From an uncultured Actinomycetales bacterium (lineage in GTDB: Bacteria; Actinomycetota; Actinomycetes; CAXTBU01): a stretch of DNA of 64,000 nt. Position numbers and translations under genes: made by a program. The DNA is taken from assembly GCA_964242885.1 (NCBI GenBank), contig CAXTBU010000001.1, positions 22,454 through 86,453 of the forward strand, in the 5' to 3' direction. The notes under the pieces were generated by a model that had not been told where the DNA came from, ran no database searches, and saw only the letters and a list, made by a program, of their open reading frames with translations. Shown in pieces: positions 5,762-61,161 of the stretch (positions are counted from its first letter, which is position 1; each line of letters opens with the position of its first letter).

Positions 5762-6056
5762 AGATCGGTCTCCTCGGGTCGGCGAGTGAGGCGCAGCGGA
5801 TGACGCGGACGAAACGGTGCGAGTGGTGCTGCCCGCCGACCCTCACCGGGACGGCCGGACGGACACCCGGCGTCTGCCAGGCGTCCAGGAGGCGAACTCG
5901 CTCAACGTACGTCAGCCGCTGGAGGCTCTGACTCACCCGGTAGGCGATGCGATGCAATCGTGACCGAAACAGCGCGATCGGGCACTCACGTGCTAACGCG
6001 GTTGTCGTGGTTCGCACGGGGCGTGGCACCGGGGTGGCGATGTCCTGCCGGCGGGC

Positions 6057-20144: not shown

Positions 20145-20231
20145 CGCATCCCTGACACGGCAGGTTGCGTGCCCTCGACGCATCGCTGACCCAGCGGATG
20201 CGCAACCGCGGCGCGCTGCCGACGATGACTC

Positions 20232-38884: not shown

Positions 38885-38915
38885 GAACCCCCGGGATCGC
38901 GACTGTGACGGCTGG

Positions 38916-40034: not shown

Positions 40035-40144
40035 CGTTCTCCTCCGGCAGCGAAAGCCGACGGCGCAGCTCCGCGCCGCCCGAAGTGGACCACCCGTGCC
40101 GCGGGTTCGTCAACCTGGAGCAGAGCAGCGACAGGTCGGGGGGC

Positions 40145-41347: not shown

Positions 41348-41501
41348 TGGTCAGCTCTCACTCGTCGGACGCTCGACGGGTCGAGACTAACGACCAGACT
41401 CGCTCGACCGTGCCGCTCGCACACAGCCGCGGCCCGAGGTGGACTCCCAACGCCGCGACGCGCGCCGGCCCGCGTTCGCTGACCGCGCGGTCACCTGACC
41501 G

Positions 41502-43690: not shown

Positions 43691-43768
43691 GGGCGCACTC
43701 CCGAGGTCGTTGAGCTGGACAGGTCGACGGCCAGGCGGGCTGAGGTTCCCACATGGCGTCGACCGGTG

Positions 43769-44968: not shown

Positions 44969-45146
44969 GACATCCCTTCCGGCGTCTGTGGGCCGGCGAC
45001 AGCGCGGACCCCTCAGCGACCCACAGATTACAGTCCGCGACGCATCCCTCGCGCTCAGCTGAACTTGGCCGTCCTCCGTCGGGCCGGCACCATGGAGTCA
45101 GGTCGCGGGTCCGTCGCCCTCACCGATCGACCCCAGGAGGACGACC

Positions 45147-46205
45147 GTGCTCGGAGCAGAGACCGGCAGCGACCTGCCGGCCGCCGGATCGCTCCCCGGT
45201 CGGCCCCCGGTGAAGGTGACGGTCGCCGTGGCGGCTCACAACGCGGGCCGCTGGTTGGCGGAGACGCTGGAGTCGGTCCTCGCCCAGACGGAGACGGACT
45301 GGACGTGTCACATCGTCGACGACGGCTCCACCGACCAGACGGCGGAGATCGCGGACGGGTTCGCACGGCGGGACCACCGGTTCCACGTCGTGCGCCAACA
45401 GAACACCGGTGTCTCGGCTGCCCGGAACCGGCTGCTGGAGCTGACCCGGGACGACGGCCCCTACGTGGCGGTCCTCGACGCCGACGACACCTGGCTCCCG
45501 GATGCGCTCCAGGTGATGTGCGGGGTGTTGGATGCGGATCCCGGAGCGGTCGGAGTCCAGTCGCTGGCCGAGTACATGGACGAGGACTCGGTGCCGATCC
45601 GCCCGGGCGAACACCCGTTCGTCCAACGCCGCAAGTCCAGCGTCCGTGGTGACCGCGTCGTACCGGCGCACTTCGGGGACGGGATGGGCTTCGCCGAGCT
45701 CGTCGTCGGCAGTGGGCTGTACCCGCCCGCCTCGATGCTGTTCCGTCGCTCCGCGATCGAGGCCGCCGGCCGGTACGACCCCGGCTACCGGGCGCAGGGC
45801 GACTGGGAGATGTACATCCGGATGAGCCGCTTCGGGCACTTCGCGGAGCTGGACCGACAGACGGCCTGGTACCGACTCCGCGAGGCCAACCTGACCGGTG
45901 ACCGGTCGAAGGTCCACCTGTTCCAGGCCCGGCTCCTACGGAAGACGTGGGAGCAGTCGGCTCCCGGCAGCGAGCAGCGCCGCGTGACCGAGGTCGCCTA
46001 CCGCCACCGGCAGCGCCAGTTCGCCCGGCGCTTCTCCGGACCGGCGCAGTCGGCCCTGGTCGGCCGGCACCCTCGCCTGTTCGCCGCCAACGCTGTGCTC
46101 GCTGTCTGGTACGGCGCTCATTCGCTCCTGCGAAGGCCTCCCGTCCCGGTCGTCCGAGCGACCCGTGCGCTGTCCAGGGTCCAGTCGAGCCGCTGGGCGA
46201 ACTGA
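45147..46205 (+). CDS. Glycosyltransferase family 2
   Basis: VKVTVAVAAHNAGRWLAETLESVLAQTETDWTCHIVDDGSTDQT...VAVLDADDTW; AGGAGG RBS 45135-45140, GTG 45147. The only biosynthetic gene on the plus strand; 3' end overlaps the convergent GT4. Confidence 0.75.
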   Translation: MLGAETGSDLPAAGSLPGRPPVKVTVAVAAHNAGRWLAETLESVLAQTETDWTCHIVDDGSTDQTAEIADGFARRDHRFHVVRQQNTGVSAARNRLLELTRDDGPYVAVLDADDTWLPDALQVMCGVLDADPGAVGVQSLAEYMDEDSVPIRPGEHPFVQRRKSSVRGDRVVPAHFGDGMGFAELVVGSGLYPPASMLFRRSAIEAAGRYDPGYRAQGDWEMYIRMSRFGHFAELDRQTAWYRLREANLTGDRSKVHLFQARLLRKTWEQSAPGSEQRRVTEVAYRHRQRQFARRFSGPAQSALVGRHPRLFAANAVLAVWYGAHSLLRRPPVPVVRATRALSRVQSSRWAN

Positions 46206-47432
46206 CCGTGGGCGCTCGGCCCGGGCCGGCGATCCGGGGTCACCGGGCGTCGTTCGCCTGACCCGGTCGTAGATGTCCGCCACGCGGGCGAGCAGGTCAG
46301 CCCGCTCGAACCGCGACTCGACGTGCGCCCTCGCGGCACGCGACATCCTCAGCAGGCCTTCGGGATCGTCCAGGGCCGCCCCGAGGGCGCGTCCGAGGGC
46401 GGCGACGTCACCCTCGGGCACGAGGACACCCGTCGAGCCGTCCAGCACCGCCTCGGGCAGGCCCGCGTGCCGGTAGCCGATCACCGGCCGGCCGGCAGCA
46501 GACGCTTCCAGCGAGACCACCGGCAGGCCCTCCGTGTCGCCGCTCGAGGCCGTCCGGGACGGCATCGCCACCACCGAGGCCGACCGGATGGTCTGGACCA
46601 CCTGGGGCGTCGGCAGGCTGCCCAGGAAGCGTGCGTCGACCCCGAGGCGGCGAGCCTGCTCCTCCAGCTGCGGGCGGAGTCGGCCGTCGCCGACCACGTC
46701 GACCCTCGGCCGGCGGTCCAGGCCGGAGACAGCGTCCAGCAGGTCCGCCAGACCCTTCTTCTCCACCAGCCGCCCGACGAAGACCACCGGCCCACCGGGC
46801 ACGGGCGCCGACCACGGGATGGCCGAGGTGTCGACCCCGCAGGCGATGACCGAGATCTTCTCCGCCGGGACACCTCGTGCGACGAGCCGGTCACGCAGGA
46901 ACGAGCTGACCGTGATCACCGCCGCCAGTCGCCGGACGACCTCGGCCCAGTGGTCCACCAGCAGGGTGTTGGCGGTGCGTCCGCCACGCAGCGACTCGGG
47001 GTCCTGCGTCACGTCGTACCCGTGGAACGTCGCCACCAGGGGGACGTCCCCTCCCGCAGCCGCTGCCGACACGAGCGCGGCGTCCGGGCCGAAGTGGGCG
47101 TGCAGGACGTCGGGGCGCAGGGACCGCAGGACGTCCCGAGCTGCCGCGGTGACCATCCGGGCCGGGGGGACGCGGAGCCGGTACCCGGCGAACTGGCGGG
47201 CGCGACCCAGCACGGAGCCGGATCGCAGCAGGTGGACGGGGACACCCGGAACCGCCAGCGTGGGTTCGCTGATCGAGGAGGCGAGCGCCGCCACCCGGTA
47301 GCGGGGCATCTCCACCAGGTGGTCGCGGATGAACGTCTCCGAGAGCGCGAGGAAGTCCTCCCGGAACACCAGCGCGCGCGGGGCGTTGGGCGCCCCCCCG
47401 AGCGCAGGCCGGTACGCGTCCTCGGCCCTCAC
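45936..47432 (-). CDS. Glycosyltransferase family 4 (paralog of 43769-44968), long C-terminal tail of uncertain reality
   Basis: VLHAHFGPDAALVSAAA...VVFVGRLVEKKGLADLLDA...SGDTEGLPVVSLEASAAGRPVIGYRHAGLPEAV; GTG start 47430-47432 overlapping upstream GT2 stop. Confidence 0.75.
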   Translation of the reverse strand: MRAEDAYRPALGGAPNAPRALVFREDFLALSETFIRDHLVEMPRYRVAALASSISEPTLAVPGVPVHLLRSGSVLGRARQFAGYRLRVPPARMVTAAARDVLRSLRPDVLHAHFGPDAALVSAAAAGGDVPLVATFHGYDVTQDPESLRGGRTANTLLVDHWAEVVRRLAAVITVSSFLRDRLVARGVPAEKISVIACGVDTSAIPWSAPVPGGPVVFVGRLVEKKGLADLLDAVSGLDRRPRVDVVGDGRLRPQLEEQARRLGVDARFLGSLPTPQVVQTIRSASVVAMPSRTASSGDTEGLPVVSLEASAAGRPVIGYRHAGLPEAVLDGSTGVLVPEGDVAALGRALGAALDDPEGLLRMSRAARAHVESRFERADLLARVADIYDRVRRTTPGDPGSPARAERPRSVRPAARLDPGQRTGRSDDRDGRPSQERMSAVPDSEHSVGGEQARVPADQGRLRRSGEAPGELALPVAVGDLGHAALLAAGSRLLPRLP

Positions 47433-48325
47433 GCGCGGGACCTCAGCCCGGAGCGCTGCTCCCGGATGTAGCCGACGGAGTAGAGCACGTCCCACAGGGT
47501 GCGCAGGTTGCGCGACGCCTGCTCGTGGTCACCGCGCCTGTCGCGGACAGCCACGGCCAGGCCGGCTCGCACGCCGCGGGGCACCAGCGCGACCAGCGAT
47601 TCGACGCGGAGCGGAGTGGCCCCGTCGTCCTCGTAGCGCCGCACCAGCGCCGCGTTGCTCCGTCCGTACCGCAGCTGCTGCTCACAGGAGGACACCAGGC
47701 CCGTCCTGGCCCGCCACCGCATCAGCGGTCGGCGGTCGACGGCCAGGGATCCGTGCCCGCCGAGCTGGATCCGGAAGCACAGGTCCGCGTCGCCGCCGCT
47801 ACGGCCGACGTCGAAGCCGTCGACCGCGACGAGGACGTCGCGCCGGACCGTGAGGTTGCAGGTCGCGTAGTAGGGGAGGAACCACGGGGTGTCGACGTAG
47901 CTGGCGACGTCGAATATCTGCAGGCCGACCGCTGCCAGCTCGGCGGTGGAGCCGCCGCCGACCACGACGGTCCCCGTCGTGGCCATGGCGACCGACGGCC
48001 CGTCGAACAGTCCGCGCACCGCGTCGGCCCAGCCCGGCTCGGGACGACTCCGCACGTCGACGAAGCCCACCAGGTCTGTCCTCAGCTCGGCCCACCCGGC
48101 GTTCCGCCCGGCGTAGGGCCCCCGCCCCGGATTGGCGACGACCACCGCGCCCAGCCGGGTGGCGACAGCGGCCGTGTCGTCGGTCGAACCGTCGTCGACG
48201 ACGAGGATCTCGTCCACGGCGGTGGTCTGGGCCCGAAGGAGCTCGAGGAGTCCCGGCAGCTCCCCGGCGGCGTCCCGCACCGGGACGACCACGCCGAGCG
48301 TCCGTGGCGCAGGCGCGTCGCTCAT
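47429..48325 (-). CDS. Glycosyltransferase family 2
   Basis: MSDAPAPRTLGVVVPVRDAAGELPGLLELLRAQTTAVDEILVVDDGSTDDT; ATG 48323-48325 overlapping wzx stop (ATGA). The upstream part of the 594-aa track ORF is rejected. Confidence 0.75.
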   Translation of the reverse strand: MSDAPAPRTLGVVVPVRDAAGELPGLLELLRAQTTAVDEILVVDDGSTDDTAAVATRLGAVVVANPGRGPYAGRNAGWAELRTDLVGFVDVRSRPEPGWADAVRGLFDGPSVAMATTGTVVVGGGSTAELAAVGLQIFDVASYVDTPWFLPYYATCNLTVRRDVLVAVDGFDVGRSGGDADLCFRIQLGGHGSLAVDRRPLMRWRARTGLVSSCEQQLRYGRSNAALVRRYEDDGATPLRVESLVALVPRGVRAGLAVAVRDRRGDHEQASRNLRTLWDVLYSVGYIREQRSGLRSRA

Positions 48326-49941
48326 GCAGCCGACCGGCGACGGCGCAGCACCGTGCGGAGTTCGTTGATCTCCGTGCGCATGAACCCCAGGGCCAGGGCG
48401 CCGTAGACGATGACGCCGACCGCCACCTGGACCAGGGTCACACCGGGACCTGTGCGGTCGGCGTCCAGCAGCGTCGGGGTGAACCAGGCTGCCGCGAACA
48501 TGGGGACGCACAGCACGGCGACCCTTGCGTTGTCGGCAAGCACGCTCCGTGCCCTCAGTCCGACCAGACGGCAGGCGAAGTGCAGGGTCGGCGTCATGAA
48601 CGTCCACGCCCGGATCAGCACCGCCACCGCCACACCGGTCGCGCCGCCCACCAGCACGCCCGCCACCATCAGGGCGATGCCCACGAAGAACGACACGAGC
48701 CCGATGCGGAACATCAGGCCGGTCCGGTTCTGGGACTGGAACAGCCAACCCACACTCGTGGAGATGCACTGTGGGATCCCCGCGAAGCACAGGATCATCA
48801 GCAGGGGAACGGTGTCGGTCCACTGGTCGCCCCACAGGAGCGGGACGGCACCCGGCGCGACAGCCGCCAGACCCACGAGGACCGGCACCGTGGCCAGGTT
48901 GATCAGTCGCACAGCTCGGCGGTAGCCCCGCGCGACCCGCTCGCGGTCGTCTCCCATGGCCGCCAGGGCGGGGAACATCACACCGCCGAGCACCTGCCCG
49001 ACCTGCTGCACCGGCAGGAGCATCAGTTGGTAGGCCTTGTTGTACAGGCCCAGGGAGGCCTGTCCGACGAAGCGCGCGATGAGGAAGTTGTCGCCGTTGC
49101 GGCCCCAGTAGTTGACGACGTTGAACCCCAGCTGCCCCCCGGAGAACAGCCAGATCTTGGGCAGCGACTCCCTCGAGATGAAGTGGTGCGGACGCCACGG
49201 AACCATCGCCCACGACAGCGCAGACGAGACGATGCTGGCGACAGCCGGCCCGAGCACCAGCGCGTACACACCGAGGTCGCCGGCAGCTCCCGCGATCGTC
49301 ACGCCGAAGCTGACGGCCGTCGAGACGACGCCGATCACGGCCATCTTCTTGAGTTTGAGCTGCCTCTGGAGCAGTGCGCTGTGCACGCCGCCGATGCCGA
49401 ACAGGAAGCTGAGCCCGGCCAGCGGAGTGAGGAGTGTCAGCCGGGGATCCCGGAACAACAACGCGACCAGGGGGCCGGACACCGCGAGGAGGAGCGTGAA
49501 GACCACGCCGCCGAGAGCATTGATCCAGAAGACCGTCGAGAGGTCACGCTCGGTCGGGTCCCGTAGAGCGATGAGCGCCGACCCCAGGCCGAGTTCGAAG
49601 AAGAGGACCGCGAACCCGGTGATGACGTAGACGCTCGCCATGGTCCCGTAGTCGGCTGGGGCCAGCAGACGTGCCAGGACCAGACCGGCAGCGAACTGGA
49701 TGCCCTGGCCACCCAGCTTGCCGACCAGGGACCACTTCGCCCCGTTGGCGACAGCACCCGTCAGTCCAGCGTCCGCGCGCAGGCCCCCCGACAGGACGGC
49801 CGGCGTCCCGGAACTGCCGGGGCCCGGGTCGGGGTGGTCGACGACGCCCCGGTCCTGGGCGCCCTCGACCGCCGCCACCGTCAGGGTCGTGACGTCACCA
49901 GACTCGGGGGCCGATCTGTCGGCCGGGTCGCGGTCAGGCAT
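48322..49941 (-). CDS. wzx: Wzx-type polysaccharide flippase (MOP superfamily, polysaccharide biosynthesis protein)
   Basis: ~12-14 TM helices; KWSLVGKLGGQGIQFAAGLVLARLLAPADYG...; ATG start 49939-49941. The upstream part of the 644-aa track ORF is rejected. Confidence 0.75.
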   Translation of the reverse strand: MPDRDPADRSAPESGDVTTLTVAAVEGAQDRGVVDHPDPGPGSSGTPAVLSGGLRADAGLTGAVANGAKWSLVGKLGGQGIQFAAGLVLARLLAPADYGTMASVYVITGFAVLFFELGLGSALIALRDPTERDLSTVFWINALGGVVFTLLLAVSGPLVALLFRDPRLTLLTPLAGLSFLFGIGGVHSALLQRQLKLKKMAVIGVVSTAVSFGVTIAGAAGDLGVYALVLGPAVASIVSSALSWAMVPWRPHHFISRESLPKIWLFSGGQLGFNVVNYWGRNGDNFLIARFVGQASLGLYNKAYQLMLLPVQQVGQVLGGVMFPALAAMGDDRERVARGYRRAVRLINLATVPVLVGLAAVAPGAVPLLWGDQWTDTVPLLMILCFAGIPQCISTSVGWLFQSQNRTGLMFRIGLVSFFVGIALMVAGVLVGGATGVAVAVLIRAWTFMTPTLHFACRLVGLRARSVLADNARVAVLCVPMFAAAWFTPTLLDADRTGPGVTLVQVAVGVIVYGALALGFMRTEINELRTVLRRRRSAA

Positions 49942-50939
49942 CGACGGAGGCGCCGGCCCGGATGACCGTCGAGGCGTCGATCCCGTCGAGCAGCGCCACG
50001 TCCGCGGGATCGACCTTGCGGGCGAAGGGCGCGTTCGCGGCGCGCGCCTCCCGGATGGTCCTGGCGTCGACCGGGCGCGGGTGGGACTCACCGTTCTCGA
50101 ACCGGCTCCAGGTCGTGCGCCCGGAGCGCACAGGTAGCCCTGTGAGGTGGGCCAACGTCTGCAGGTAGGCCTCGTCCGGGATGTAGGTGCGCCTGAAGTG
50201 CGCCGACAGTTCGGGTCGGTCGTGGTGCAACCCGAGGATGCCCTCGAGCACCGCACGCGAGACGCCGAGCCACTGGGCGCCCTTCCAGCAGCCGATCTCG
50301 TCGATCACCGCCGACCGGTGCCGGATCCCGATCCCGTACCCGAGTCCGCGCGGCAGGTGCGCGAGCCAGATGGTGTGCTGCCACTTGTCGAATCCGTACC
50401 ACCACGCAGCCTTCGCGACCCGACGCAGGCCGCCGCGCACGACACGGTCGAACGCGGCAGAACGTGCCGGCGAGACGAAGGTGAACCGGTAGCGGTACCT
50501 CGAGGTGTCAGTCATCCGGTCGGCCTCGATGATGCCGGCGGTGCCCTCGGCGACGACGTCGTCTTCCCACGCGGCCAGGTCCAGCACCGGATAGCACTGA
50601 CCGGAGATCGCGACGAACCAGTCCCCGTCGGTCTTCGCGGCGGCCTCGAACGCCTCGATCATCCCCTCGGTCATCTCCCAGGACCCCCACCGCATCGCGA
50701 TGTGGCTACGGAACAGCTGCCCCCCGGCCGCCTGGACCTCGTCCGCGGAGAGGAAGCCGTCCGGCTCGGCGTGCCGGACGAGGACGATCGACCCCGGCGA
50801 CAGCGTCCTGATCCGCCGAACGAGGCGGAGCACCAGCTCGGGCTGGTGGTGCGCCAGAACGATGTAGCAGAAGGTCGGCCGGTACGCCGCCCCGGAACGG
50901 GCGTGTGGCGTACCGGCCTGGTCGCTGTGCTGGCTCATC
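49934..50939 (-). CDS. Glycosyltransferase family 14 (core-2/I-branching enzyme, Branch domain)
   Basis: RPTFCYIVLAHHQPELVLRLVRRI...MRWGSWEMTEGMIEAFEAA...FVSPARSAAFDRVV; GGAGGA RBS then ATG 50937-50939. Confidence 0.65.
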
Positions 50940-51097
50940 GGGGGTGGTCCTCCAGGGTCGCCCGGTGGCGCGGCGTCCATCGTCGGTTTCCCAGCCCCGG
51001 CGCTGGTCGGTCCGGAGATCTCGCTGCGGGTTCCGGAGACTGAGACAGTACGCGGCCGTCCGACCCGCTCGGCGGGTCGACCGGACTCCGCCTGTCC

Positions 51098-51967
51098 TCA
51101 TCGCAACTTGACCGCCAGCCGCCATCGCAGCGCCTGGGCCAACGCGACAGCGGATCTGGGCCGCTGGAGGAGTCCCCGCATCCCGGTGCGCAGGGCGACG
51201 ACGGCGCTGCGACGGTCCGGGGCCTGCCGCAGCACGTCCCAGGCGGCGACGGCGGCGATGTCCGCCACCAGTTCCTCGTCGAACCACTGTGAGCCCTCGA
51301 ACATGCGGACCACCGCGCTGCGACCGTCCCGCATCAGCTCGGCGTCCCCGGACACCTGACCGCCGTGTTCCAGGTAGGTACAGGTGACCTCCGGGACGAC
51401 CAGCCCGGTGCCCCGCTGGAGGAGCCGGACCCAGAACTCCAGGTCCGCTCCCCGTTCGAGGTCGGCGAAGCCGCCGGCGGCCAGTGCGGCAGCGCGGTCG
51501 ACGACCACCCCGCTGGGCAACACTGGGCTGTCCGGCCAGATGACCGCCCGCGGGGTGAGCTCGAACGGTCGGCGCCCCGGGTAGCCGACGAGCTTGCCGC
51601 TCGGCACCGCACGTCCGACGGACCCGACGAGGACACGTCCGGGCAGGTGCGGAACCACCGTCGCGAGGTGGTGCGGCAGCCAGGTGTCGTCCGAGTCGAG
51701 AAACGCGACAGCAGCCGTCGAGGACTCCCGCAGCCCCGTGTTGCGCGCCGCCCCCTCCCCCGCGTTCAGCTGTCGGATGACTCGAGCGCCCAGTCGCTCA
51801 GCCAGCTCACCGGTCCCGTCGGTGGAGCCGTCGTCGACGACGACCACCTCCGCTGCACAGACAGGGGACTGGTTGAGCGCCGACAGCACAGCCCGTCCCA
51901 CCAGGTCGACCCGCTGGTAGGCCGGGATCACCGCGGTGACATCGGCGACGGTCACTGCTGCGCTCAC
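51098..51967 (-). CDS. Glycosyltransferase family 2 (module A)
   Basis: VTAVIPAYQRVDLVGRAVLSALNQSPVCAAEVVVVDDGSTDGTGELAERLGARVIRQLNAGEGAARNTGL...FLDSDDTWLPHHL; GTG start overlapping LbH stop. Confidence 0.8.
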   Translation of the reverse strand: MSAAVTVADVTAVIPAYQRVDLVGRAVLSALNQSPVCAAEVVVVDDGSTDGTGELAERLGARVIRQLNAGEGAARNTGLRESSTAAVAFLDSDDTWLPHHLATVVPHLPGRVLVGSVGRAVPSGKLVGYPGRRPFELTPRAVIWPDSPVLPSGVVVDRAAALAAGGFADLERGADLEFWVRLLQRGTGLVVPEVTCTYLEHGGQVSGDAELMRDGRSAVVRMFEGSQWFDEELVADIAAVAAWDVLRQAPDRRSAVVALRTGMRGLLQRPRSAVALAQALRWRLAVKLR

Positions 51968-52590
51968 CGTGCGTCCTGGACGCCGCTGTCCCGCTTCACG
52001 GAGCGCCGATCGGCGGTGCGGACGACTCGGGCCGGGACGCCCACTGCCAGGGCGCCCGGCGGCACGTCGCCGCGCACGACTGCCCCGGCGGCGACGACGG
52101 CCCCGTCCCCGATCGACACGCCCCGCAGCACGACAGCGTTGGCACCGAGCCAGACGTCGTCGCCGATGCGCACCGGGCTGACCCGGTAACCGTCGCCCGC
52201 GCCCGCCAGGTGGTCCTCGTCGTGGATCGAGACCCGCTCGCCGAACCGACAGCGGTCCCCGATCACCAGGCCCGCCAAGACCGCGATGGTGCAGTCGCGG
52301 TTCACGTAGACGTCGTCGCCGATCGTCAGCGGGCCGTCGACGAACGCGCTGAACCCGTCGGCCAGGACGAGCCCTCGGCCGCGCGTGAACGATCCCCTCG
52401 TTCCGAACCGGATACGCGACCCGCGCCCGAGTGCGATCGGCGGTCCGGCCAACTGCGGGGTCAACGCCACGGCTGCCAGGAACCGCAGACGACCCAGGAC
52501 CCGGTCCAGATCCGCCGCCCGGCCCGCGGGTACCGGGCCTTCACGGACAGGTGGCGACGACGCCGCACCCGTTTCGCCTGTGCGGGGCAT
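51964..52590 (-). CDS. Sugar O-acetyltransferase, left-handed beta-helix (hexapeptide repeat) family (module A)
   Basis: IGDDVYVNRDCTIAVLAGLVIGDRCRFGERVSIHD...IGDDVWLGANAVVLRGVSIGDGAVVAAGAVV (hexapeptide repeats). Confidence 0.75.
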   Translation of the reverse strand: MPRTGETGAASSPPVREGPVPAGRAADLDRVLGRLRFLAAVALTPQLAGPPIALGRGSRIRFGTRGSFTRGRGLVLADGFSAFVDGPLTIGDDVYVNRDCTIAVLAGLVIGDRCRFGERVSIHDEDHLAGAGDGYRVSPVRIGDDVWLGANAVVLRGVSIGDGAVVAAGAVVRGDVPPGALAVGVPARVVRTADRRSVKRDSGVQDAR

Positions 52591-52902: not shown

Positions 52903-54105
52903 ATGACCACCGATCGCCGCCCAGCAACGCGTCGCCTGCTCGCAACAACCGTCGTGGCAGGCGTTGCCCTCGCGCTGGGTGCCTGCTCCGACGCGGGCAC
53001 CGCCCCGTCCAGCTCGACTGCCGCGTCGCCTCCCGCCACGACGCCCGCTGCACGGGCGACCCGGACCCCGCCCAAGCTCCCCAGCGACCTCGAGCGGGGC
53101 GCGGGCGGTCGGGTCGGAGTCGAGGCGATGACCCTGGCCGCCGGCCCGCTGGCACCGGCCGGATCGTTCTGGCGGCAGCAGGTCGGCGCTGCGCCGATCG
53201 CCGACGACAGCGCCGAACAAGTCGCCGACCTGAGCAAGCAGGTCGCCGACCACTGGGGCGGGATCGCCGCGTTCAACGCCTGGGACTACAACACGACCGT
53301 GGTCACGGTGCCGGCCGACCAGCCGCGCGTGGACGTGGTCTGGGACGACTGCCAGCACAAGGGGTACACACCCGGCGGGCTGTACGGCAAGAACGGCCAG
53401 TTCGTCGACGTGCCGATCCCGGACAACGTGCGCACCGCAGGCGGAACCGACAAGGAGATCACCGTCTGGTCGCCTTCGACCGACCAGCTCTGGGAGTTCT
53501 GGATCGCCAACAAGAAGGACGACGGCTGGCACGCGTGCTGGGGAGGCCGGATGGACGAGGTGTCGACCGGCCGCGGCTATTTCCGCCACAGCTTCGGTGC
53601 GACCGCGACCGGCCTGCCCAACGCGTTCGGCATGGTCAGCTTCGCCGACGTCCGCGGCGGCAGCATCGACCACGCACTGTCTCTCCAGGTCATCGGGGCG
53701 GCGGACTGGTGGAAGATCTCGTGGCCCGCGCAGCGCGGTGACGGGGACGGCACAGGGCGGATCGAAGAGGGCACCAGGTTCCGACTCGACCCCTCCGTCG
53801 ACGTCGCCCAGCTCGACATCCACCCCCTGGCGGAGCTGATCGCCCGGGCCGCGCAGCGTTACGGGTTCGTCGTCACCGACCGGTCCGGAGCCGTGGCGGT
53901 GCTCGGCGAGGGCGGGAACTCGCTGTCGGCCAACGGTGTCGGGAACCCCTGGGAGGACCTGCTCGGCGACACCAAGAACTACGACGTGCTCAGGAACTTC
54001 CCGTGGGACCGGCTGCAGGCGCTCCCGCACGACTTCGGCAAGCCGGCAGCCCCCGCGTCGCCCTCGTCCTCGGCTTCGCCGGCAGCCTCTCAGACGGCGG
54101 ACTGA
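52903..54105 (+). CDS. Secreted lipoprotein of unknown function with Pro/Ser/Thr/Ala-rich linkers
   Basis: Signal peptide + lipobox (VVAGVALALGAC), linker SSSTAASPPATTPAARATRTPP, C-terminal tail KPAAPASPSSSASPAASQTAD. Globular domain with no motif I recognise. Confidence 0.6.
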   Translation: MTTDRRPATRRLLATTVVAGVALALGACSDAGTAPSSSTAASPPATTPAARATRTPPKLPSDLERGAGGRVGVEAMTLAAGPLAPAGSFWRQQVGAAPIADDSAEQVADLSKQVADHWGGIAAFNAWDYNTTVVTVPADQPRVDVVWDDCQHKGYTPGGLYGKNGQFVDVPIPDNVRTAGGTDKEITVWSPSTDQLWEFWIANKKDDGWHACWGGRMDEVSTGRGYFRHSFGATATGLPNAFGMVSFADVRGGSIDHALSLQVIGAADWWKISWPAQRGDGDGTGRIEEGTRFRLDPSVDVAQLDIHPLAELIARAAQRYGFVVTDRSGAVAVLGEGGNSLSANGVGNPWEDLLGDTKNYDVLRNFPWDRLQALPHDFGKPAAPASPSSSASPAASQTAD

Positions 54106-54178
54106 GTTCCGGGGCCCGTCACTCGCTGGTCAATCGTGCTTCCCTGCAGTGACTACTGGGCCGGACGAGGGAGTGCAC

Positions 54179-56239
54179 GTGACGATGTCCCAACGCATGC
54201 GAGGGTTGGCGGCCGCGACGGCCGTCACGACCCTGGCGCTGGCTGGCTCGGTGGGAGACCCAGCGGGCGCTGCCCCGTCCGCGTCCGTTGGACCTCGCTC
54301 CTCGACCCGGTTCGTCTACTCGATCAACCCGACCCTCCCCGTGCCGGACGCGGGGGCGGTGGCTGTCGACAGCACGACGGGCACCGCCTACGTGAGCTCC
54401 ACAGCCGCCGGGCTGCCAGCCGCAGCAGTCGTCGACCTCGCGCAGCGCAGGGTCGTCACGACGATCGCCGGGGCCGCCGGGCTGAGCATCGTCGTGGACC
54501 CCGCACGCCAACGCCTGCTCGCCACCACCAACTCGGGTTTCTCGGTCTACTCGACCACCACGCGGCGCCGGGTGTTGACGGGCCCACGCGTGCCCGGCAA
54601 CCAGGACCTGCGGGGCCAGGCCGCACTCGATGCGGTGACCGGGACGGGGTACCTCACCGTGACGACCATCCCGAACCCGGACTTCACCGGCGTGACGCCG
54701 ATCGACGCGCGGACCGGCTCCAGCGACTTCACCGGGTTCGGGGCCCGGGGTTGTGGCGGGGGCCTCGGCATCGATGCGGTCCGGCGCCACGCCTTCCTGG
54801 CCACCGACCTGGCGCTCACCCGCTTCGACCTCGGCGGAGAAGGCGCCGGGGACCGACCGTCGGTCACGCTCGGAACCCCCGGCGATCGATTCCCCTGCGT
54901 GGACACCGAAGTCCCGCTGGTCGTCGATCCTGCGACCGGGGTCGTCTGGTTGTCCGGCGGCGGGCGACTGTTCGCTGTCGACGGCTCGACGATGCGGGTG
55001 CTCACGACGCTCGATGTCGAAGCGGATCAGCTGGCGGTCGACGTGAGCAACCACAGCGTCTATGCGCTGCGCGGCGCCACGCTGACGGTGGTCGACGCGG
55101 CCACCGGGAAGGTCGACACCCGCTTGACGCTCCCCCGTCCGGCCGTCCACGTGGCCGTTGATCCGGTTCGCCACGAAGCCGTGGTGAGCGACCCGGTCGG
55201 CGTCACCACCGTCGACCAGCGCGCTCCCGCCACAGCGGTCTCCGGGGGCGGGCAGGTCGCCCACCCCGGCGACCGGTTCCTCGCGCCACTGAGCGTGTCG
55301 GCGACCCGTGCCGACGGTGGACCCGCCGCCGGCGTACCCGTTCAGTTCCAGGTGGTCGGCGGTCCGGCGACCTTCGAGGGCGGCTCGCCGGTGACGAACG
55401 TCGCCACCGGCGCCGACGGCCGGGCGTCGTCGCGCCCACTCCTCGCCGGGGCGACGTCGGGCGCCGTGACCGTGCGGGCGGTGGTGACCGGTGCCCCGGC
55501 CGTCTCGTTCAGCTTGGCGGTGACTCCTCGGCCGGCGCCGCCACCGGCCTATGCGGACACGACAACGGGGGCCACCGGCCAGCTCCAGGTGCCCGGACCG
55601 GACCCCTACGCCTACGGCTCCCTGACCGGCTCGGTCCGCACCTCGTCGGGTCAGCCGGTCGCCTACCGCCGCCTCGTCGTGGACGTGGTCGAGCACGCGA
55701 CCTTCGACTCACGCGATCCGGTACGTCCCGACCAGGTCTTCACCGACGCGGCGGGGTCCTTCACCACCCCGCGCGTCGTCGCACCCGGGAACTTCGGACC
55801 GGTCCTGGTGACAGTTGGAGGCGATTCCGTCCAGGCGGCCGGGTGGCTGCTCGCCAACCCGGACCCCGACCGTCTGGCAACGGACCTGGCGGTGAACGTG
55901 GCTGGTCCTTCCTCACTCGCGCTCGGACGGTCCGGTTCGGTGACCGTGACGATCACCAACCGCGGGACGGTTCCCCTCGCCACGGGGGACGTCCTCGCTG
56001 GCATCTCGGCCACGCCCGGCCTGCGGTTCGGCACCGGTCCGGCGGACGCCCTGTTCGCACGCGGGCAGGTGGTCGTGGTCGACCCGGGCGCTCTGCCGGC
56101 CGGCGGACGTCGCTCGTTCTCGGTGCCCGTCGTGGCGAGCGCGCGGGGGAACGCTCGCCTGACGGCGGGTGTGGTCGCCGGCGTCCGCGACTCCCGGGCG
56201 GCCGACAACGCGGCGGCCGCTGCCGTGTCGGTGCGCTGA
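54179..56239 (+). CDS. Secreted YVTN-family beta-propeller repeat protein with C-terminal DUF11/Ig-like conserved repeat domain
   Basis: Signal peptide MSQRMRGLAAATAVTTLALAGSVGDPAGA; repeated ...VAVD/VVVD/AVDGST... blades (YVTN-like); C-terminal LAVNVAGPSSLALGRSGSVTVTITNRGTVP (DUF11-type). GGGAG RBS before GTG 54179 / ATG 54185. The upstream part of the track ORF is rejected. Confidence 0.6.
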   Translation: MTMSQRMRGLAAATAVTTLALAGSVGDPAGAAPSASVGPRSSTRFVYSINPTLPVPDAGAVAVDSTTGTAYVSSTAAGLPAAAVVDLAQRRVVTTIAGAAGLSIVVDPARQRLLATTNSGFSVYSTTTRRRVLTGPRVPGNQDLRGQAALDAVTGTGYLTVTTIPNPDFTGVTPIDARTGSSDFTGFGARGCGGGLGIDAVRRHAFLATDLALTRFDLGGEGAGDRPSVTLGTPGDRFPCVDTEVPLVVDPATGVVWLSGGGRLFAVDGSTMRVLTTLDVEADQLAVDVSNHSVYALRGATLTVVDAATGKVDTRLTLPRPAVHVAVDPVRHEAVVSDPVGVTTVDQRAPATAVSGGGQVAHPGDRFLAPLSVSATRADGGPAAGVPVQFQVVGGPATFEGGSPVTNVATGADGRASSRPLLAGATSGAVTVRAVVTGAPAVSFSLAVTPRPAPPPAYADTTTGATGQLQVPGPDPYAYGSLTGSVRTSSGQPVAYRRLVVDVVEHATFDSRDPVRPDQVFTDAAGSFTTPRVVAPGNFGPVLVTVGGDSVQAAGWLLANPDPDRLATDLAVNVAGPSSLALGRSGSVTVTITNRGTVPLATGDVLAGISATPGLRFGTGPADALFARGQVVVVDPGALPAGGRRSFSVPVVASARGNARLTAGVVAGVRDSRAADNAAAAAVSVR

Positions 56240-56284
56240 CCCGAGTGGGGAGCGGCGGGCTCGGGCCCCCACTCCCCTCCCGGG

Positions 56285-57304
56285 TCAGGCCTGTCTGTGA
56301 CCGGGTGACCCCAGGCGTTCCGCGGCCGCGGCGGCGTCCAGCCGGTCCAGCACGGCGGGCGCGGACAGTTCGACCTTCCGGACGAACGGCCGCCCGGCGA
56401 CCCGCGCGGTCTCCACGTCGTCCACGGTGACCTCCCGGGGGTGCGGGTCGGAACCGGTGAAGTGCTTCCACGACAGCGAGCGGTCCGCCACGGTCAGGGC
56501 CGGGTCAGAACACACGATCGTCTGGAAGTAGCCCTCGTCCGGGATCAGCGACCGCTCGAAACGCTGCCGAACGGCAGGGTCAGCTGCGTCGGCTGTGAGG
56601 ACGGCTGACGCCGCCGCGCGGTCGAGGGCCATCCACTGCTCGCCGTACCAGGGCGCCCAGGCAGATCGGACCGGCGCGGGGAGTCGGCGACCGACCATCC
56701 ACGGCAGTCCGCGCGGCATCTCGTTGACGGCCCACCCGACCTGCAGGCGGCTCCCCCAGCGATACCAGGCCGCGCGTGCCGCCCGACGCAGGAACGGATG
56801 CGCCCAGCGCTCAGGGTGGGTGCTCGGCAACGCCGTCCAGCGGTAGGTGTAGCGGCGGGTCAACCAGTCCTCGCGCTCCATGGTCCGGGTCTCCCGGCGG
56901 GTCGGATCCAGCGGCCTGGCCGCCACCCACGCGTTCACCCCGCTGGCCACGAGCTCGTCCTCCCACGCGCCGAGGTCCCGGACGGGGTAGTCCTGGCCCG
57001 AGACGAGCACGGTCCACTGCGGGTCGACGTGCTCACGAACCCACTCGAGCGCTTCCAACTGGGCGGCCACCATCGCCCACGAGCCCCACGTGATGGCCGT
57101 CGTGCTCACCAACTCCCGCGTGCGCGACGGGAGGTCGACTCCGTCGAACAATCCTGGGCGATCGTGGCGCAGGACGACCTCCGCCGACGACGAGGACTCC
57201 GTCACCGCGCGTGCCAGTCGCGCGACCAGCTCCGGCTGCCGGTGGCAGAAGACGAGGTAGCAGAACCGGGGACGACTCTGAGCCCGGAACACCGGCGCGC
57301 TCAC
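56285..57304 (-). CDS. Glycosyltransferase family 14 (core-2/I-branching enzyme) (module B)
   Basis: RPRFCYLVFCHRQPELVARLARAV...ITWGSWAMVAAQLEALEWV; GTG start 57302-57304 overlapping GT2 stop (GTGA). Confidence 0.65.
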   Translation of the reverse strand: MSAPVFRAQSRPRFCYLVFCHRQPELVARLARAVTESSSSAEVVLRHDRPGLFDGVDLPSRTRELVSTTAITWGSWAMVAAQLEALEWVREHVDPQWTVLVSGQDYPVRDLGAWEDELVASGVNAWVAARPLDPTRRETRTMEREDWLTRRYTYRWTALPSTHPERWAHPFLRRAARAAWYRWGSRLQVGWAVNEMPRGLPWMVGRRLPAPVRSAWAPWYGEQWMALDRAAASAVLTADAADPAVRQRFERSLIPDEGYFQTIVCSDPALTVADRSLSWKHFTGSDPHPREVTVDDVETARVAGRPFVRKVELSAPAVLDRLDAAAAAERLGSPGHRQA

Positions 57305-58218
57305 CGCAGACGCCCGGCGACCCGCCACCGGATGGTCTCGGCGATGGCGGACATCCCGGCGGGGTTGCGCCGAACCGTCGCGACCAGGCCCCGCACAGCC
57401 GAGCCCCGGGACTCGCGTCCGGACTGGCGGAACTCGTCCCAGGCATCGACGGCGGCCATCTTCGCCGGTAGGTCGGGGTCGAACCAGGCGGCACCGCGAT
57501 GGCGCGCTACCACGTCCCGGCGGTTGATCCTCATCTCCGTCCGGTCGCCGGAGACCTGCCCGGGGTGCTCGGTGTAGACGGAGGTGACGTCCGGGAGGAC
57601 GACCCCCGGCCCGACCTCGAGCAGGCGTAGCCACAGGTCCAGGTCCGCACCGAGCCGCAGCGTCGGGAAGCCGCCCACCGCCAGGGCAGCCTCGCGGTCC
57701 AGCACGACGGCGCCCGGGGTGAACGGACTCTGTGGCCAGATGACCTCCCGTGGGCCGATGCGCTGCACCGACCGCCACGGCGAGCCGACCCGTCGTCCAC
57801 TCGGCACGCCGCGGGCCGTGCTGGCGACGAGAACTGCCCCGGGTGTGTGGGGCATGACGACGTCCAGGTGGTTGGGCAGCCACTCGTCGTCGGAATCCAG
57901 CAGCGCGACCCAGCCGGTCCGGGCGGCGCGCAGGCCGGCGTTGCGGGCCGCTCCCTCCCCGCCGTTGGGCTGGCGGACGACCGTCGCGCCGAGACTCTTT
58001 GCGACGTCACCCGTGCCGTCGGTGGAGCCGTCGTCGACCACGATCACCTCGGCCGGACGTCGTGGCCGCTGGGACAGCGCCGACAGCACTGCCCGCCCGA
58101 TGAAGTCGACCCGCTGGTAGGCCGGGATGACGACGGTCACGTCGCTCAGCTCCCCCGACGCCTGGACCAGGCCCTGGACTCGGGAGTCCTCCTGGTCGCC
58201 GGCCGCGTGGCCGGTCAC
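57301..58218 (-). CDS. Glycosyltransferase family 2 (module B)
   Basis: VTVVIPAYQRVDFIGRAVLSALSQRPRRPAEVIVVDDGSTDGTGDVAKSLGATVVRQPNGGEGAARNAGL...LLDSDDEWLPNHL; GTG start overlapping LbH stop. Confidence 0.8.
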   Translation of the reverse strand: MTGHAAGDQEDSRVQGLVQASGELSDVTVVIPAYQRVDFIGRAVLSALSQRPRRPAEVIVVDDGSTDGTGDVAKSLGATVVRQPNGGEGAARNAGLRAARTGWVALLDSDDEWLPNHLDVVMPHTPGAVLVASTARGVPSGRRVGSPWRSVQRIGPREVIWPQSPFTPGAVVLDREAALAVGGFPTLRLGADLDLWLRLLEVGPGVVLPDVTSVYTEHPGQVSGDRTEMRINRRDVVARHRGAAWFDPDLPAKMAAVDAWDEFRQSGRESRGSAVRGLVATVRRNPAGMSAIAETIRWRVAGRLR

Positions 58219-58802
58219 GACGCGACGGCCGGGTTGTCGGTGACATCCCGGCGGCGCCTGACCAGGCGGGCCGGGTTGCCCGCGACGATCGACCAGGGTT
58301 CGACGCTCGACGTCACCACCGAGGCTGCCCCCACGATGCTGCCTCGGCCGATCGTGCACCCGGGCAGGATGGTCGTTCCCGCGCCGATCCAGACGTCGTC
58401 CTCGATCACGATCGGCCAGTCGTCGCGAAAGCCCTGCGCGTTCATCGGCACGTCGGTCGACCCGAATTCGTGACTGCTGGACAGGAGCACGCACCGCGGT
58501 CCCATCATCACGTCGCGCCCGATCGTGACGGGGCCGATGACCAACGCGTCCAGGCCGATCGCCGACCTGTCGCCGACCGAGACCCCACGGCCGGACCCGA
58601 ACCACGCGCCGTGCTCGATGTTCACGTCGACGCCGCAGGAGTCGAGCATCCGGGAGGCGAGCTGGCCCCGGACGGCCTTCGCCACCCCTCCGCCGGGCCG
58701 TGGCGACCAGGGGAGATGACGAGCGAGGAGAAGGTATGCGCCGGCTGCCACGTCCCGACGTACCGAAGACGCCCGCCCGTTCCCCACCGCCGACCTGGTC
58801 AC
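58215..58802 (-). CDS. Sugar O-acetyltransferase, hexapeptide-repeat (LbH) family (module B)
   Basis: VGDRSAIGLDALVIGPVTIGRDVMMGPRCVLLSSSHEF...IEDDVWIGAGTTILPGCTIGRGSIVGAASVV. Confidence 0.75.
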   Translation of the reverse strand: MTRSAVGNGRASSVRRDVAAGAYLLLARHLPWSPRPGGGVAKAVRGQLASRMLDSCGVDVNIEHGAWFGSGRGVSVGDRSAIGLDALVIGPVTIGRDVMMGPRCVLLSSSHEFGSTDVPMNAQGFRDDWPIVIEDDVWIGAGTTILPGCTIGRGSIVGAASVVTSSVEPWSIVAGNPARLVRRRRDVTDNPAVAS

Positions 58803-60274
58803 CCCGCGGAGTCTGCCGCACCACCGCGCCCGCTCCGTGCATCCCCGGCGACCCGGTGGCCGGGCGGCTCACGTCGCCCGACCGTCGCCGGCGCCAGCAC
58901 CACACCGGCCAGCAACCACAGGAGGAAGTTGGGCAGCGGTGTACCGAACGGGCTCAACATCGCGCCGGCGAGCCAGGCAACCGACGCGCCGAGCAGGACG
59001 ACCCGCCACCCCTGGTGCTCTGCGTCGCGGGTGCGGGTCACCACCCCGCGCAGCGGGCCGAGCGCCAGGGCGGTGACGAACAACAGCAACCCGGGCACAC
59101 CGAGCTCCGCGCCACGGGACAGCAGGACGTTGTGGACCTCGAGATGCGTCGCGGTGATCGGGTAGTCGCGGGCCTGCCGGACGAAGTCGACACCGTGGTC
59201 GACGAACTGCTGCCAGCCGATCCCGGTCAGCGGGCGTTCTTCCATGATGCGCAGCGCGGCGTTGTTCGAGTTCTGGCGGTCCCAGATCGGTCGCTGGTCG
59301 TTCACCCTGGCGTTCACACCGTTGCTCAGGGCCGGCACGAACGTGAGCAGTGCGCCGACAGCGATGGTGAGGCCGACGACGACCGTCGGGAGGTACCTGC
59401 GCAGCCGAGGGACGATCACTCCGACCAGCAGGACACTGGCGGCCGCCCCGACCCACACGGACCTGGTCAGCGTGAGGAGGACTCCGAGCGCACACAGCAG
59501 CACCGCGAGCACGGAGACGTATCGCCACCAGGTGCGGAAGCGGACGGCCGCGAAGCCGGCGGCGAAGCCGACCTGGACCATCACCACGCCGTTGGCGACC
59601 GACTCCAGGAACGGCCCGCGGGCCCGGCCGAAGTGGATCCCGACGGAGCTGTCGGCGATGTACCGGGGAAAGATCAGTGCGCGCGGCCCAGCGAGCTCGA
59701 ACAGGGCGGTCAGGCCGAGGTACAACGCCATCAGGACCGCGAACTTGAGGAAGAGGTCCCGCCGCGCCGGGTTGGACAGCACCAGCGGGGCGAGCACGAA
59801 CAGGACGAACGGGATGACCAACCGGTCCAGGAGCGCGAACGCGCCGACACCACTGGTGAGGCTTCCGGCACGCTGTGCCGAGTCGAGGGCGATCACGACG
59901 AGCGCGAGCATCGCCAGGTGGACGAACCCGACCTTCACCTTCCGCTGCTGCCACGTTCGCCTGTCGAGCACCAGCAGGACGACGAAACCCGCGAAGAACA
60001 GGCGGTCGGGTCCGATCGGGAGTCCGACCAGTCCCGAGTAGCCGGACAGCATGTTCAAGCCGAGGAACGCCAGGAAGAGCCAGACGTAGACCGGGAAACC
60101 GCGAGCGGCCAGAGCCGGCGACGGCCCGCCCCCGGCTGCCGGCAGCTGTCCCGGGCCACCCACCACACCGCCCGTCACCGACTCCCGCACGTCGTCCGAG
60201 CGGCCGGCGCGCCCGACCGGATGGGCCCCCGCCGTCGACCCGACCCGAGCAGCGGCCGAGGCCCCAACGCTCAC
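58799..60274 (-). CDS. O-antigen ligase (Wzy_C) family membrane protein: polymerase, ligase, or O-oligosaccharyltransferase candidate
   Basis: ~10-12 TM helices with a large periplasmic loop (VPRLRRYLPT...RVNDQRPIWDRQNSNNAALRIMEERPLTGIGWQQF...HNVLLSRGAELGVPG) typical of Wzy_C/WaaL family. Confidence 0.65.
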   Translation of the reverse strand: MSVGASAAARVGSTAGAHPVGRAGRSDDVRESVTGGVVGGPGQLPAAGGGPSPALAARGFPVYVWLFLAFLGLNMLSGYSGLVGLPIGPDRLFFAGFVVLLVLDRRTWQQRKVKVGFVHLAMLALVVIALDSAQRAGSLTSGVGAFALLDRLVIPFVLFVLAPLVLSNPARRDLFLKFAVLMALYLGLTALFELAGPRALIFPRYIADSSVGIHFGRARGPFLESVANGVVMVQVGFAAGFAAVRFRTWWRYVSVLAVLLCALGVLLTLTRSVWVGAAASVLLVGVIVPRLRRYLPTVVVGLTIAVGALLTFVPALSNGVNARVNDQRPIWDRQNSNNAALRIMEERPLTGIGWQQFVDHGVDFVRQARDYPITATHLEVHNVLLSRGAELGVPGLLLFVTALALGPLRGVVTRTRDAEHQGWRVVLLGASVAWLAGAMLSPFGTPLPNFLLWLLAGVVLAPATVGRREPPGHRVAGDARSGRGGAADSAG

Positions 60275-61161
60275 TGCCGACCGCTTGCCTCGACGTCCCG
60301 CCGGCGCCCCGTCCTGCGGTCGAGCGCGACAGCCGCCACGACCGCGAGCAGGAAACCGGCCACGAGGCCGCCCAACCCGTACCGGCCGTAGGTGCTGTTC
60401 CGGTTGTTGCCGAGGACAGTCGCCCCCTGGACGTCCTTCAGGCCGGCAGCGAGGGGCTGGTTCGTGATGGCCTCGGTGTACTGGGACCGCAGCGTCGCCT
60501 GTTGGAGCTGCACGGCGGACACCTGGACCGCGCGGTTCTGGATCGCCGACCGCAGACCCGGTGCTCGCGGTGCCTGCGACCGCAGCGTCTCCGCCCGGGT
60601 CAGCGCGAGCCGGTCCGCGTCCTGGGCCGTCTGTAGCTGAGCGAGCTGGGCCGAGACCTTGTTGTAGGCCGCGAAGTAGTTGTCGGCGGTCGCGTTCGTC
60701 CGGGTCGGCGCGTTCGCCTGGGCCTTCAGCTGGTTCGCCGCCAGCCCGGCGGCGGCCAGGGCGGTCTGCCGGGTCGTGGCCTGGACCTGGACCGACACCA
60801 GGCCGGTCTCCGGCACCGGTGACCCGGTCATCGACACGACCTCACCGGCACGACCGCCGAGGCTGGCGTTCAGTGCCGTCCGCGCCTGCGGCAGCCCGAC
60901 GAAGTGGGCGTAGGTCCCGGCCAACTGGTTCGCCGCGTAGGCGTACCCGGGGACCTGGTAGTCCTTCAGGTCCTGACTTCCGACGATCAGCCGGGTCTCG
61001 GCGGTGGTGATCTCGGGCCGGGTCGACGCGAAGGCGAGCCCGGCGACGAGGCCGAGCAGGGTCAGCAGTGCGGCAACCACCCAGTGGCGGCCGACCGATC
61101 GAAGCGGCGTTGGTGCCTCTTCCAGGACTTCCGATCGCGTCGGTTCGGTCAAGGTCGACAA
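60271..61161 (-). CDS. Wzz-like chain-length determinant (polysaccharide co-polymerase, no kinase domain)
   Basis: TM (HWVVAALLTLLGLVAGLAF), periplasmic coiled-coil-like region, C-terminal TM (GLGGLVAGFLLAVVAAVALD) then RRTGRRR; proposed TTG start 61161 after GGGGAG. The upstream part of the 725-aa track ORF is rejected. Confidence 0.55.
   Translation of the reverse strand: MSTLTEPTRSEVLEEAPTPLRSVGRHWVVAALLTLLGLVAGLAFASTRPEITTAETRLIVGSQDLKDYQVPGYAYAANQLAGTYAHFVGLPQARTALNASLGGRAGEVVSMTGSPVPETGLVSVQVQATTRQTALAAAGLAANQLKAQANAPTRTNATADNYFAAYNKVSAQLAQLQTAQDADRLALTRAETLRSQAPRAPGLRSAIQNRAVQVSAVQLQQATLRSQYTEAITNQPLAAGLKDVQGATVLGNNRNSTYGRYGLGGLVAGFLLAVVAAVALDRRTGRRRDVEASGRQ

Follow-up and report, generated by a model that had tools for sequence, protein, structure and literature searches.

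A putative lipid-anchored, polysaccharide-cleaving enzyme of an unnamed actinobacterial family, encoded within a Wzx/Wzy-type cluster

What role do two exported proteins play when their genes lie side by side, and on the opposite strand, in the middle of a polysaccharide biosynthesis cluster? This question is raised by a 64,000-nucleotide stretch of DNA from an uncultured Actinomycetales bacterium (contig CAXTBU010000001.1, positions 22,454 to 86,453; hereafter the window, with all coordinates counted from its first letter), in which two plus-strand genes, here named ORF-A and ORF-B, interrupt a glycan island encoded on the minus strand. A first-pass annotation, made from the sequence alone, described them as a lipoprotein and a YVTN propeller/DUF11 protein, and proposed that either could be the acceptor of the glycan made by the island, a surface-layer (S-layer)-like component, or a glycan-processing factor. 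Its observation is confirmed, and its interpretation is partly supported. Both genes are real, as indicated by the GC content at third codon positions (GC3; 0.89 for ORF-A and 0.84 for ORF-B) and by the existence of homologues for each of them. They are the only plus-strand genes in the approximately 17 kb between 45.9 and 63.5 kb, with a plus-strand family 2 glycosyltransferase (GT2) gene at 45147-46205 lying just outside, and they are located between two copies of an acetyltransferase-GT2-Branch module whose paralogous members share 36%, 56%, and 35% identity, respectively. With moderate confidence, and on the basis of sequence comparison, we read ORF-A as a lipid-anchored extracytoplasmic enzyme of an unnamed family, most likely cleaving the polysaccharide assembled by the surrounding Wzx/Wzy cluster.

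The exported protein ORF-A and its conserved core

ORF-A is preceded by a GGGAG ribosome-binding site and begins with MTTDRRPATRRLLATTVVAGVALALGAC, where a twin-arginine-like RR motif (TRRLLA) is followed by the lipobox LGAC, with Cys28 as the residue to be lipidated. Read from the sequence, this N-terminus displays the charged N-region, the hydrophobic core, and the lipobox of a bacterial lipoprotein processed as a substrate of Lgt and Lsp, the lipobox being defined here as [LVI][ASTVIG][GAS]C within approximately 35 residues of the start. The lipobox is retained in the closest orthologues (P0002, P0003, P0036, and P0107), which are among the 7 of 60 aligned family members matching this pattern, and most of the full-length N-termini in the alignment, judged by eye and not counted, look like signal peptides or lone membrane anchors. 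The public call of this gene (P0001, 325 amino acids) starts downstream and leaves out 52903-53127, including the RR/lipobox signal; since P0002 and P0003 keep the signal that P0001 lacks, the public start is likely mis-called. As first described, segments rich in Pro, Ser, Thr, and Ala follow the lipobox and close the protein, and between them lies a conserved core of approximately 300 residues (Table 1).

The first-pass annotation recognized no family in this core, and the searches performed here agree with it: no Pfam or NCBIfam match was found in ORF-A or in any of the 60 family members scanned, and a sequence-profile search of the PDB was empty, its sole match falling on the fused NPCBM-like part of some paralogues. 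The AlphaFold2 model of ORF-A, built from the 60-sequence alignment, has 229 residues with a predicted local distance difference test score (pLDDT) of at least 90, and most of the 10-residue blocks between residues 81 and 380 score 85-98 (range 80-98). Foldseek retrieved no PDB match with this model. According to the model, the core of ORF-A is a confidently folded domain without a close solved relative. No description of it was found in the literature searched, most subscription journals being outside the coverage of that search.

Relatives outside cellular genomes are found among the tail proteins of Gordonia phages. Residues 178-340 of ORF-A match PHROG 17388, annotated as 'minor tail protein' (E-value 2.9e-9), and a tblastn search with ORF-A returned 49 Gordonia phage records with 27-31% identity, one of them annotated as 'glycosylhydrolase'. 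When profiles were compared, hhalign aligned the ORF-A core with gp30 of the Gordonia phage BlingBling over 247 columns (probability 97.9%, E-value 4e-13). Judged from these alignments, the ORF-A core and the central domain of the Gordonia phage minor tail proteins are truly homologous. Proteins such as BlingBling gp30 and Stormageddon gp18 share with ORF-A the motifs GxD, HAL, WPA..D, and YG..V.D, whereas they differ from it in their length (640-760 amino acids), in their additional N- and C-terminal parts, and in having no signal peptide. They have no Pfam match and are themselves uncharacterized, and a search with the phage domain gave only 15 relatives, all of them unannotated. A homologue of the bacterial type (376 amino acids, 34% identity) is encoded at 4932-6062 of the IMG/VR contig UViG_3300034069_001451 (our locus L083), near tail-sheath and neck genes and adjoining the gene of a 1160-residue protein without a PHROG match.

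The polar residues kept in both the bacterial and the phage branches (alignments A1 and A3) are D183, H257, D280, and D326, plus Q318 and Y320. The two branches have no conserved Ser or Cys in common, which makes a serine or cysteine hydrolase less likely. The conserved pattern fits a carboxylate-based cleavage of glycans, or possibly a metal site, and on these grounds the core may be regarded as putatively catalytic.

Three more specific assignments were considered and not adopted. A role as a serine esterase or deacetylase, suggested by the neighbouring O-acetyltransferase, was rejected because of the absence of a conserved Ser or Cys just mentioned. A lyase acting on a uronic-acid polymer has no specific support, since UDP-sugar dehydrogenase genes were found near only 3 of the 52 genome loci described below, and none is present in the window. 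Membership of the MltA-type lytic transglycosylases (glycoside hydrolase family GH102) was examined with the superfamily profile A3, which hhalign found unrelated to Escherichia coli MltA (probability 0.08%), and because of this null result ORF-A is not classed as GH102; MltA-type proteins were not retrieved by Foldseek either. The ORF-A core, of some 300 residues, is also larger than MltA-type enzymes and other double-psi beta-barrel proteins such as GH45 enzymes, expansins, and YuiC.

Linkage to polymerisation genes and the proposed role

The protein collection contains 680 or more members of the ORF-A family, and a further search confirmed 217 matches in species-representative genomes. It is present in genera that include Kineococcus (which holds the best genome match, with 57% identity), Pseudokineococcus, Nocardioides, Modestobacter, Blastococcus, Luteococcus, Mobilicoccus, Austwickia, Arsenicicoccus, Aquipuribacter, and Amnibacterium, and some of its paralogues contain a fused Big_7, NPCBM, or Malectin domain. 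Homologues lie inside annotated Wzx/Wzy clusters in Nocardioides sp. Leaf307, in Kineococcus sp. TBRC 1896, and in a metagenome-assembled genome (MAG) syntenic with the window.

The first-pass annotation had proposed to look for co-occurrence of the two genes with the island across genomes, and it was seen for ORF-A but not for ORF-B, as detailed in the next section. Using the cluster proteins of the window itself as queries, we scored the neighbourhoods in 52 genome loci, each 10 kb or longer, for Wzy and other markers within 10 kb of the ORF-A homologue. A Wzy homologue was found in the flanks of 34 loci (65%), with a median midpoint distance between ORF-A and Wzy of approximately 1.85 kb; if WecG or a flippase is also accepted, the count rises to 41 of 52 (79%). 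A homologue of the Wzz-like gene of the window was found in 31 of the 52 loci. The markers follow the order Wzz, Wzy, hexapeptide acetyltransferase, ORF-A, mostly with ORF-A convergent, in at least 18 loci, and in several Kineococcus genomes ORF-A paralogues stand on both sides of the Wzz-Wzy-acetyltransferase block. As many as 30 of the 52 loci carry 2-5 copies of ORF-A, and tandem arrays of paralogues, the largest with five copies within 21 kb, are present in the Kineococcus genomes L014, L012, L011, L016, L034, and L035.

The export of ORF-A, its conserved catalytic-type residues, the fusion of its paralogues to carbohydrate-binding modules (CBMs), its linkage to polymerisation genes, and the reuse of its core in phage tails are jointly consistent with an extracytoplasmic enzyme whose substrate is a polymer. 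Its substrate would be the repeat-unit polymer of its own cluster, which ORF-A may trim, release, or set to a given chain length on the outer side of the membrane, acting as a hydrolase, a lyase, or a transglycosylase. Phages would employ this domain to cut their way through polymers of this kind. Glycanases encoded within exopolysaccharide clusters are known, and include PslG, AlgL, BcsZ, the hydrolase domain of PelA, and PssZ. ORF-A resembles these proteins in that it is exported and that its gene belongs to, and is conserved with, a cluster for the synthesis of a secreted or cell-surface polysaccharide. By analogy with PslG-type glycanases, the role proposed for ORF-A would likewise be the trimming or releasing of its own polymer.

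Several observations weigh against this assignment. No Pfam, NCBIfam, or PDB-profile match connects the ORF-A core to any glycoside hydrolase or polysaccharide lyase family, and no polysaccharide marker lies close to 7 of the 52 loci. The background against which the proximity to Wzy is to be read is an estimate by reasoning, namely a chance of approximately 1-2% that a gene picked at random from a 4-5 Mb genome with a few Wzy genes lies within 10 kb of one of them. Finally, multi-copy arrays with CBM fusions would also suit scavenging enzymes for foreign glycans.

A more far-reaching version of the proposal, which we put forward only tentatively, is that the ORF-A family founds a new family of carbohydrate-active enzymes with a fold unlike any solved structure, that it represents a regular fourth extracytoplasmic component next to Wzx, Wzy, and Wzz in the pathway of Actinomycetota (for instance, a transglycosylase ending or releasing chains or passing them on to the wall), and that its domain was captured by actinophages as a tail-borne depolymerase.

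The alternative that survives best, even though we consider it unlikely, takes up the last of the observations above: the members of the ORF-A family would be secreted glycanases for foreign glycans, used in scavenging or competition, and their proximity to Wzy would reflect residence in variable glycan islands and not a common pathway. Fusions to CBMs are typical of scavenging glycosidases, arrays of up to five copies also occur without Wzy nearby (for example, in L013 and L014), and the loci devoid of polysaccharide markers point in the same direction. Against this, the copy nearest to Wzy keeps its position next to the Wzz-Wzy-acetyltransferase block in different actinobacterial families and is retained where clusters have been rearranged, and the ORF-A of the window is predicted to be lipid-anchored at the surface of its own cell and has no CBM.

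It is less probable that ORF-A acts on the cell wall, either as a peptidoglycan lytic transglycosylase clearing a passage through the wall for polymer export or as a ligase that attaches the finished polymer to peptidoglycan. None of the 60 family members scanned has an MltA, 3D, LysM, PG_binding, or SH3 Pfam domain (MltA and 3D sought at E-values up to 0.1), and the accessory domains that do occur, NPCBM, Malectin, and Big_7, bind glycans other than peptidoglycan.

The explanation favoured by the first-pass annotation, that ORF-A and/or ORF-B are acceptor glycoproteins, gained no positive support and is the one we consider least likely. Members of the Wzy_C family also include protein O-oligosaccharyltransferases, such as PglL and WsaB, and the Wzy_C protein of the window, which has no NCBIfam match and whose sequence does not separate a polymerase from a transferase, would in this case glycosylate the Pro/Ser/Thr/Ala-rich segments. 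Such low-complexity Ala/Pro/Ser/Thr-rich stretches, as expected of an O-glycoprotein acceptor, are indeed present in ORF-A, both after the lipobox and at the C-terminus; however, they are also ordinary actinobacterial linkers, comparable ones are missing from many family members, the Wzz-like gene beside Wzy_C and the flippase of the cluster point to polymerisation, and the invariant Asp and His residues, the CBM fusions, the paralogue arrays, and the phage tail homology are left unexplained. With its Wzz-Wzy linkage, its invariant Asp/His/Asp/Asp set, its CBM fusions, and its phage homologues, ORF-A fits an enzyme rather than a passive acceptor, and of the roles first proposed, that of a glycan-processing factor has thus gained ground for the lipoprotein and has not done so for ORF-B.

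The assembly of cell-wall and capsular polysaccharides is poorly mapped in non-mycobacterial Actinomycetota, and here a family without a name, a domain model, or a structural relative travels with polymerase and chain-length genes in at least 12 genera and is thereby a concrete candidate for a step still missing from the scheme or for a control point. As a glycanase, ORF-A would define a new enzyme family that could serve to dissect these polymers; the Gordonia phage proteins now labelled only 'minor tail protein' would gain a function as well, with a bearing on phage host range. Since cultured hosts (Nocardioides sp. Leaf307 and several Kineococcus species) carry Wzy-linked copies, the idea is directly testable.

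The lineage-specific propeller protein ORF-B

ORF-B is the 3' part of a long open reading frame (53936-56239), and may start at GTG 54179 or at ATG 54185. The arrangement GAGGGAG-N5-GTG, in which the ribosome-binding site lies in the spacer behind ORF-A, is invariant in four loci (the window, L001, L002, and L079), and the start is for this reason probably the GTG and not the ATG of the public 684-residue call. Upstream of this start, within 54106-54185, the sequence TCGTGCTTCCCTGCAGTGA is conserved in 3 of the 4 loci. No hairpin was found between ORF-A and ORF-B (fold z-score +1.16), and a strong GC-rich one lies directly 3' of the ORF-B stop (dG, the folding free energy, of -48.3 kcal/mol; z-score -3.6; none of 200 shuffles folding as well), between the convergent ORF-B and Branch genes. 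With this arrangement, the pair looks like one transcription unit, in which ORF-B is probably co-transcribed with ORF-A and which probably ends at a bidirectional terminator without a T-run. Consensus scans for promoters and terminators were empty, as expected at 73% GC.

Read from its sequence, ORF-B carries a Sec-type signal peptide. Its model consists of seven four-strand blades, covering residues 44-338, followed by three beta-sandwich domains, and Foldseek matches it to E. coli YncE (3vgz/3vh0; TM score 0.73) and to the YVTN+PKD structure of a Methanosarcina S-layer protein (1l0q; E-value 1e-13). The propeller of the first-pass annotation is thereby borne out by the modelled structure. 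In sequence searches the propeller is far less visible: ORF-B has no Pfam propeller match, and its match to the NCBIfam model 7_blade_YncE (E-value 7e-8, 31.7 bits) falls well short of the 400-bit cut-off. One invariant Asp is found in each blade (D62, D105, D149, D197, D248, D286, and D326), within a repeat of the type xVDxxxxxxY. ORF-B therefore has in common with YncE and 1l0q the seven-blade propeller and the single conserved Asp per blade, and its Ig-like domains come next, as in 1l0q, even though the identity is only about 14%. The same propeller-on-stalk layout is present in the ectodomains of integrin alpha chains (Foldseek E-value 6e-15).

The C-terminal beta-sandwich of ORF-B is probably DUF11-like, as first described. 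No DUF11 (PF01345) match was found in the ORF-B of the window at E-values up to 1, whereas the aligned C-terminal position is DUF11-like in relatives: P0135 scores 24.9 bits, above the cut-off of 24.6, and P0125 (21.0 bits) and P0127 (19.3 bits) remain below it.

The resemblance to 1l0q, a fragment of an archaeal S-layer protein, would favour the S-layer-like role first suggested for ORF-B, and yet this role has found no support: ORF-B shows no SLH or other wall-anchoring Pfam domain, no LPXTG-type or other sortase motif, and no hydrophobic C-terminus that could serve as an anchor. Its distribution is narrow. Only 5 close homologues were found among 5.8 billion clusters, and an exhaustive phmmer search confined the family to a few metagenomic relatives. 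The pair formed by ORF-A and ORF-B is kept in four closely related metagenomic contigs (L001, L002, L079, and L080), whereas the 70%-identical syntenic cluster L077, from a MAG, has ORF-A alone, a further point against ORF-B as the acceptor of the glycan. No ORF-B homologue was found in any of the 66 genome loci, and a distant one sits in an unrelated context. Exact look-ups with the ORF-B of the window and with P0135 returned no contig. Judged from this distribution, ORF-B is a lineage-specific secreted protein added behind ORF-A, and not a conserved partner of the island. Its architecture weakly points to a binding or surface protein as the most likely reading, in which ORF-B may assist ORF-A or contact the polymer.

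The cluster and the rest of the window

The window is typical of a high-GC actinobacterial chromosome (66-79% GC). Its first 35 kb or so contain housekeeping genes, among them a YcaO-family gene at 20229-21692 (plus strand), and the Wzx/Wzy-type polysaccharide cluster extends from approximately 37 kb onward. The cluster comprises two Acyl_transf_3 genes, a CsaB/WcaK-like pyruvyl transferase, GT4 and GT2 glycosyltransferases, a Polysacc_synt_3 flippase, two Branch/GT14-like genes, hexapeptide O-acetyltransferases, a Wzy_C polymerase, a Wzz-like gene, and a WecG/TagA-family transferase. The features discussed here are collected in Table 1.

Table 1. Coordinates of the features of ORF-A, ORF-B, and the neighbouring cluster genes in the window.
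Feature	Coordinates	Strand	Description	Basis
ORF-A	52903-54105	+	400-aa (amino acid) lipoprotein, unnamed actinobacterial family	GC3, homologues
ORF-A signal peptide	52903-52986	+	RR motif, lipobox, putative lipidation site Cys28	Read from sequence
ORF-A linker	52987-53142	+	aa 29-80; P/S/T/A in 32/52 residues	pLDDT ~33-53 over aa 1-80
ORF-A conserved core	53143-54042	+	~300 aa, putative catalytic-type	pLDDT, alignments, phage hhalign
ORF-A conserved residues	53449-53451; 53671-53673; 53740-53742; 53878-53880	+	D183; H257; D280; D326	
ORF-A C-terminal tail	54043-54102	+	Pro/Ala/Ser-rich; P/S/T/A in 18/23 residues	Counted over aa 378-400
ORF-A/ORF-B spacer	54106-54178	+	GAGGGAG ribosome-binding site; no terminator hairpin	
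ORF-B	54179-56239	+	Secreted propeller and beta-sandwich protein, 684/686 aa, lineage-specific	Model pLDDT 80.9
ORF-B propeller	54314-55198	+	Seven-blade YVTN/YncE-type, aa 44-338	Foldseek, model
ORF-B Ig domain	55202-55522	+	Big_1-like; most of 312 phmmer matches align here	Pfam Big_1, E-value 1.6e-3
ORF-B second beta-sandwich	55547-55852	+	All-beta segment, aa 455-556	Model
ORF-B C-terminal beta-sandwich	55862-56236	+	DUF11/CARDB-like	Model; DUF11 in relatives
GC-rich hairpin	56227-56295		Probable bidirectional terminator	
Module copy 1	49934-52590	-	Hexapeptide O-acetyltransferase 51964-52590; GT2 51098-51967; Branch/GT14-like 49934-50980	Pfam and paralogy
Module copy 2	56285-58802	-	Branch ORF from 56285, homology 56336-57283; GT2 57304-58167	Pfam and paralogy
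Module copy 2 acetyltransferase	58215-58802	-	Hexapeptide; homology 58257-58601	Pfam and paralogy
Polymerisation genes	58799-61161	-	Wzy_C polymerase 58799-60274; Wzz-like gene 60301-61161	Pfam Wzy_C (polymerase)

The product of the gene adjoining Wzy, here called Wzz-like, has no Pfam or NCBIfam match. It shares 34% identity with the product of a Kineococcus gene that has a weak Wzz match and 67% with that of a syntenic 296-residue gene in L077, and is probably a divergent chain-length regulator.

The GC content of the glycan island (38000-52000) is 0.70-0.74, compared with 0.75-0.79 in the upstream DNA, and between 38 and 40 kb the AT skew has a strongly positive value (+0.33), a hint that the region is variable or was acquired. 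At the edge of the island, the minus-strand gene at 37379-38884 encodes a membrane protein resembling the mycobacterial GT-C mannosyltransferase MT1671 (NCBIfam E-value 1e-44, below the cut-off); if it is an extracytoplasmic polyprenol-sugar transferase, it could decorate the polymer or proteins. Beyond the end of the window (>64000), synteny with L077 (19232-21179) and L079 (20247-22058) predicts a DegT-type aminotransferase and a Big_7-fused paralogue of ORF-A, which would be P0015, a protein of 447 amino acids encoded on the same public contig.

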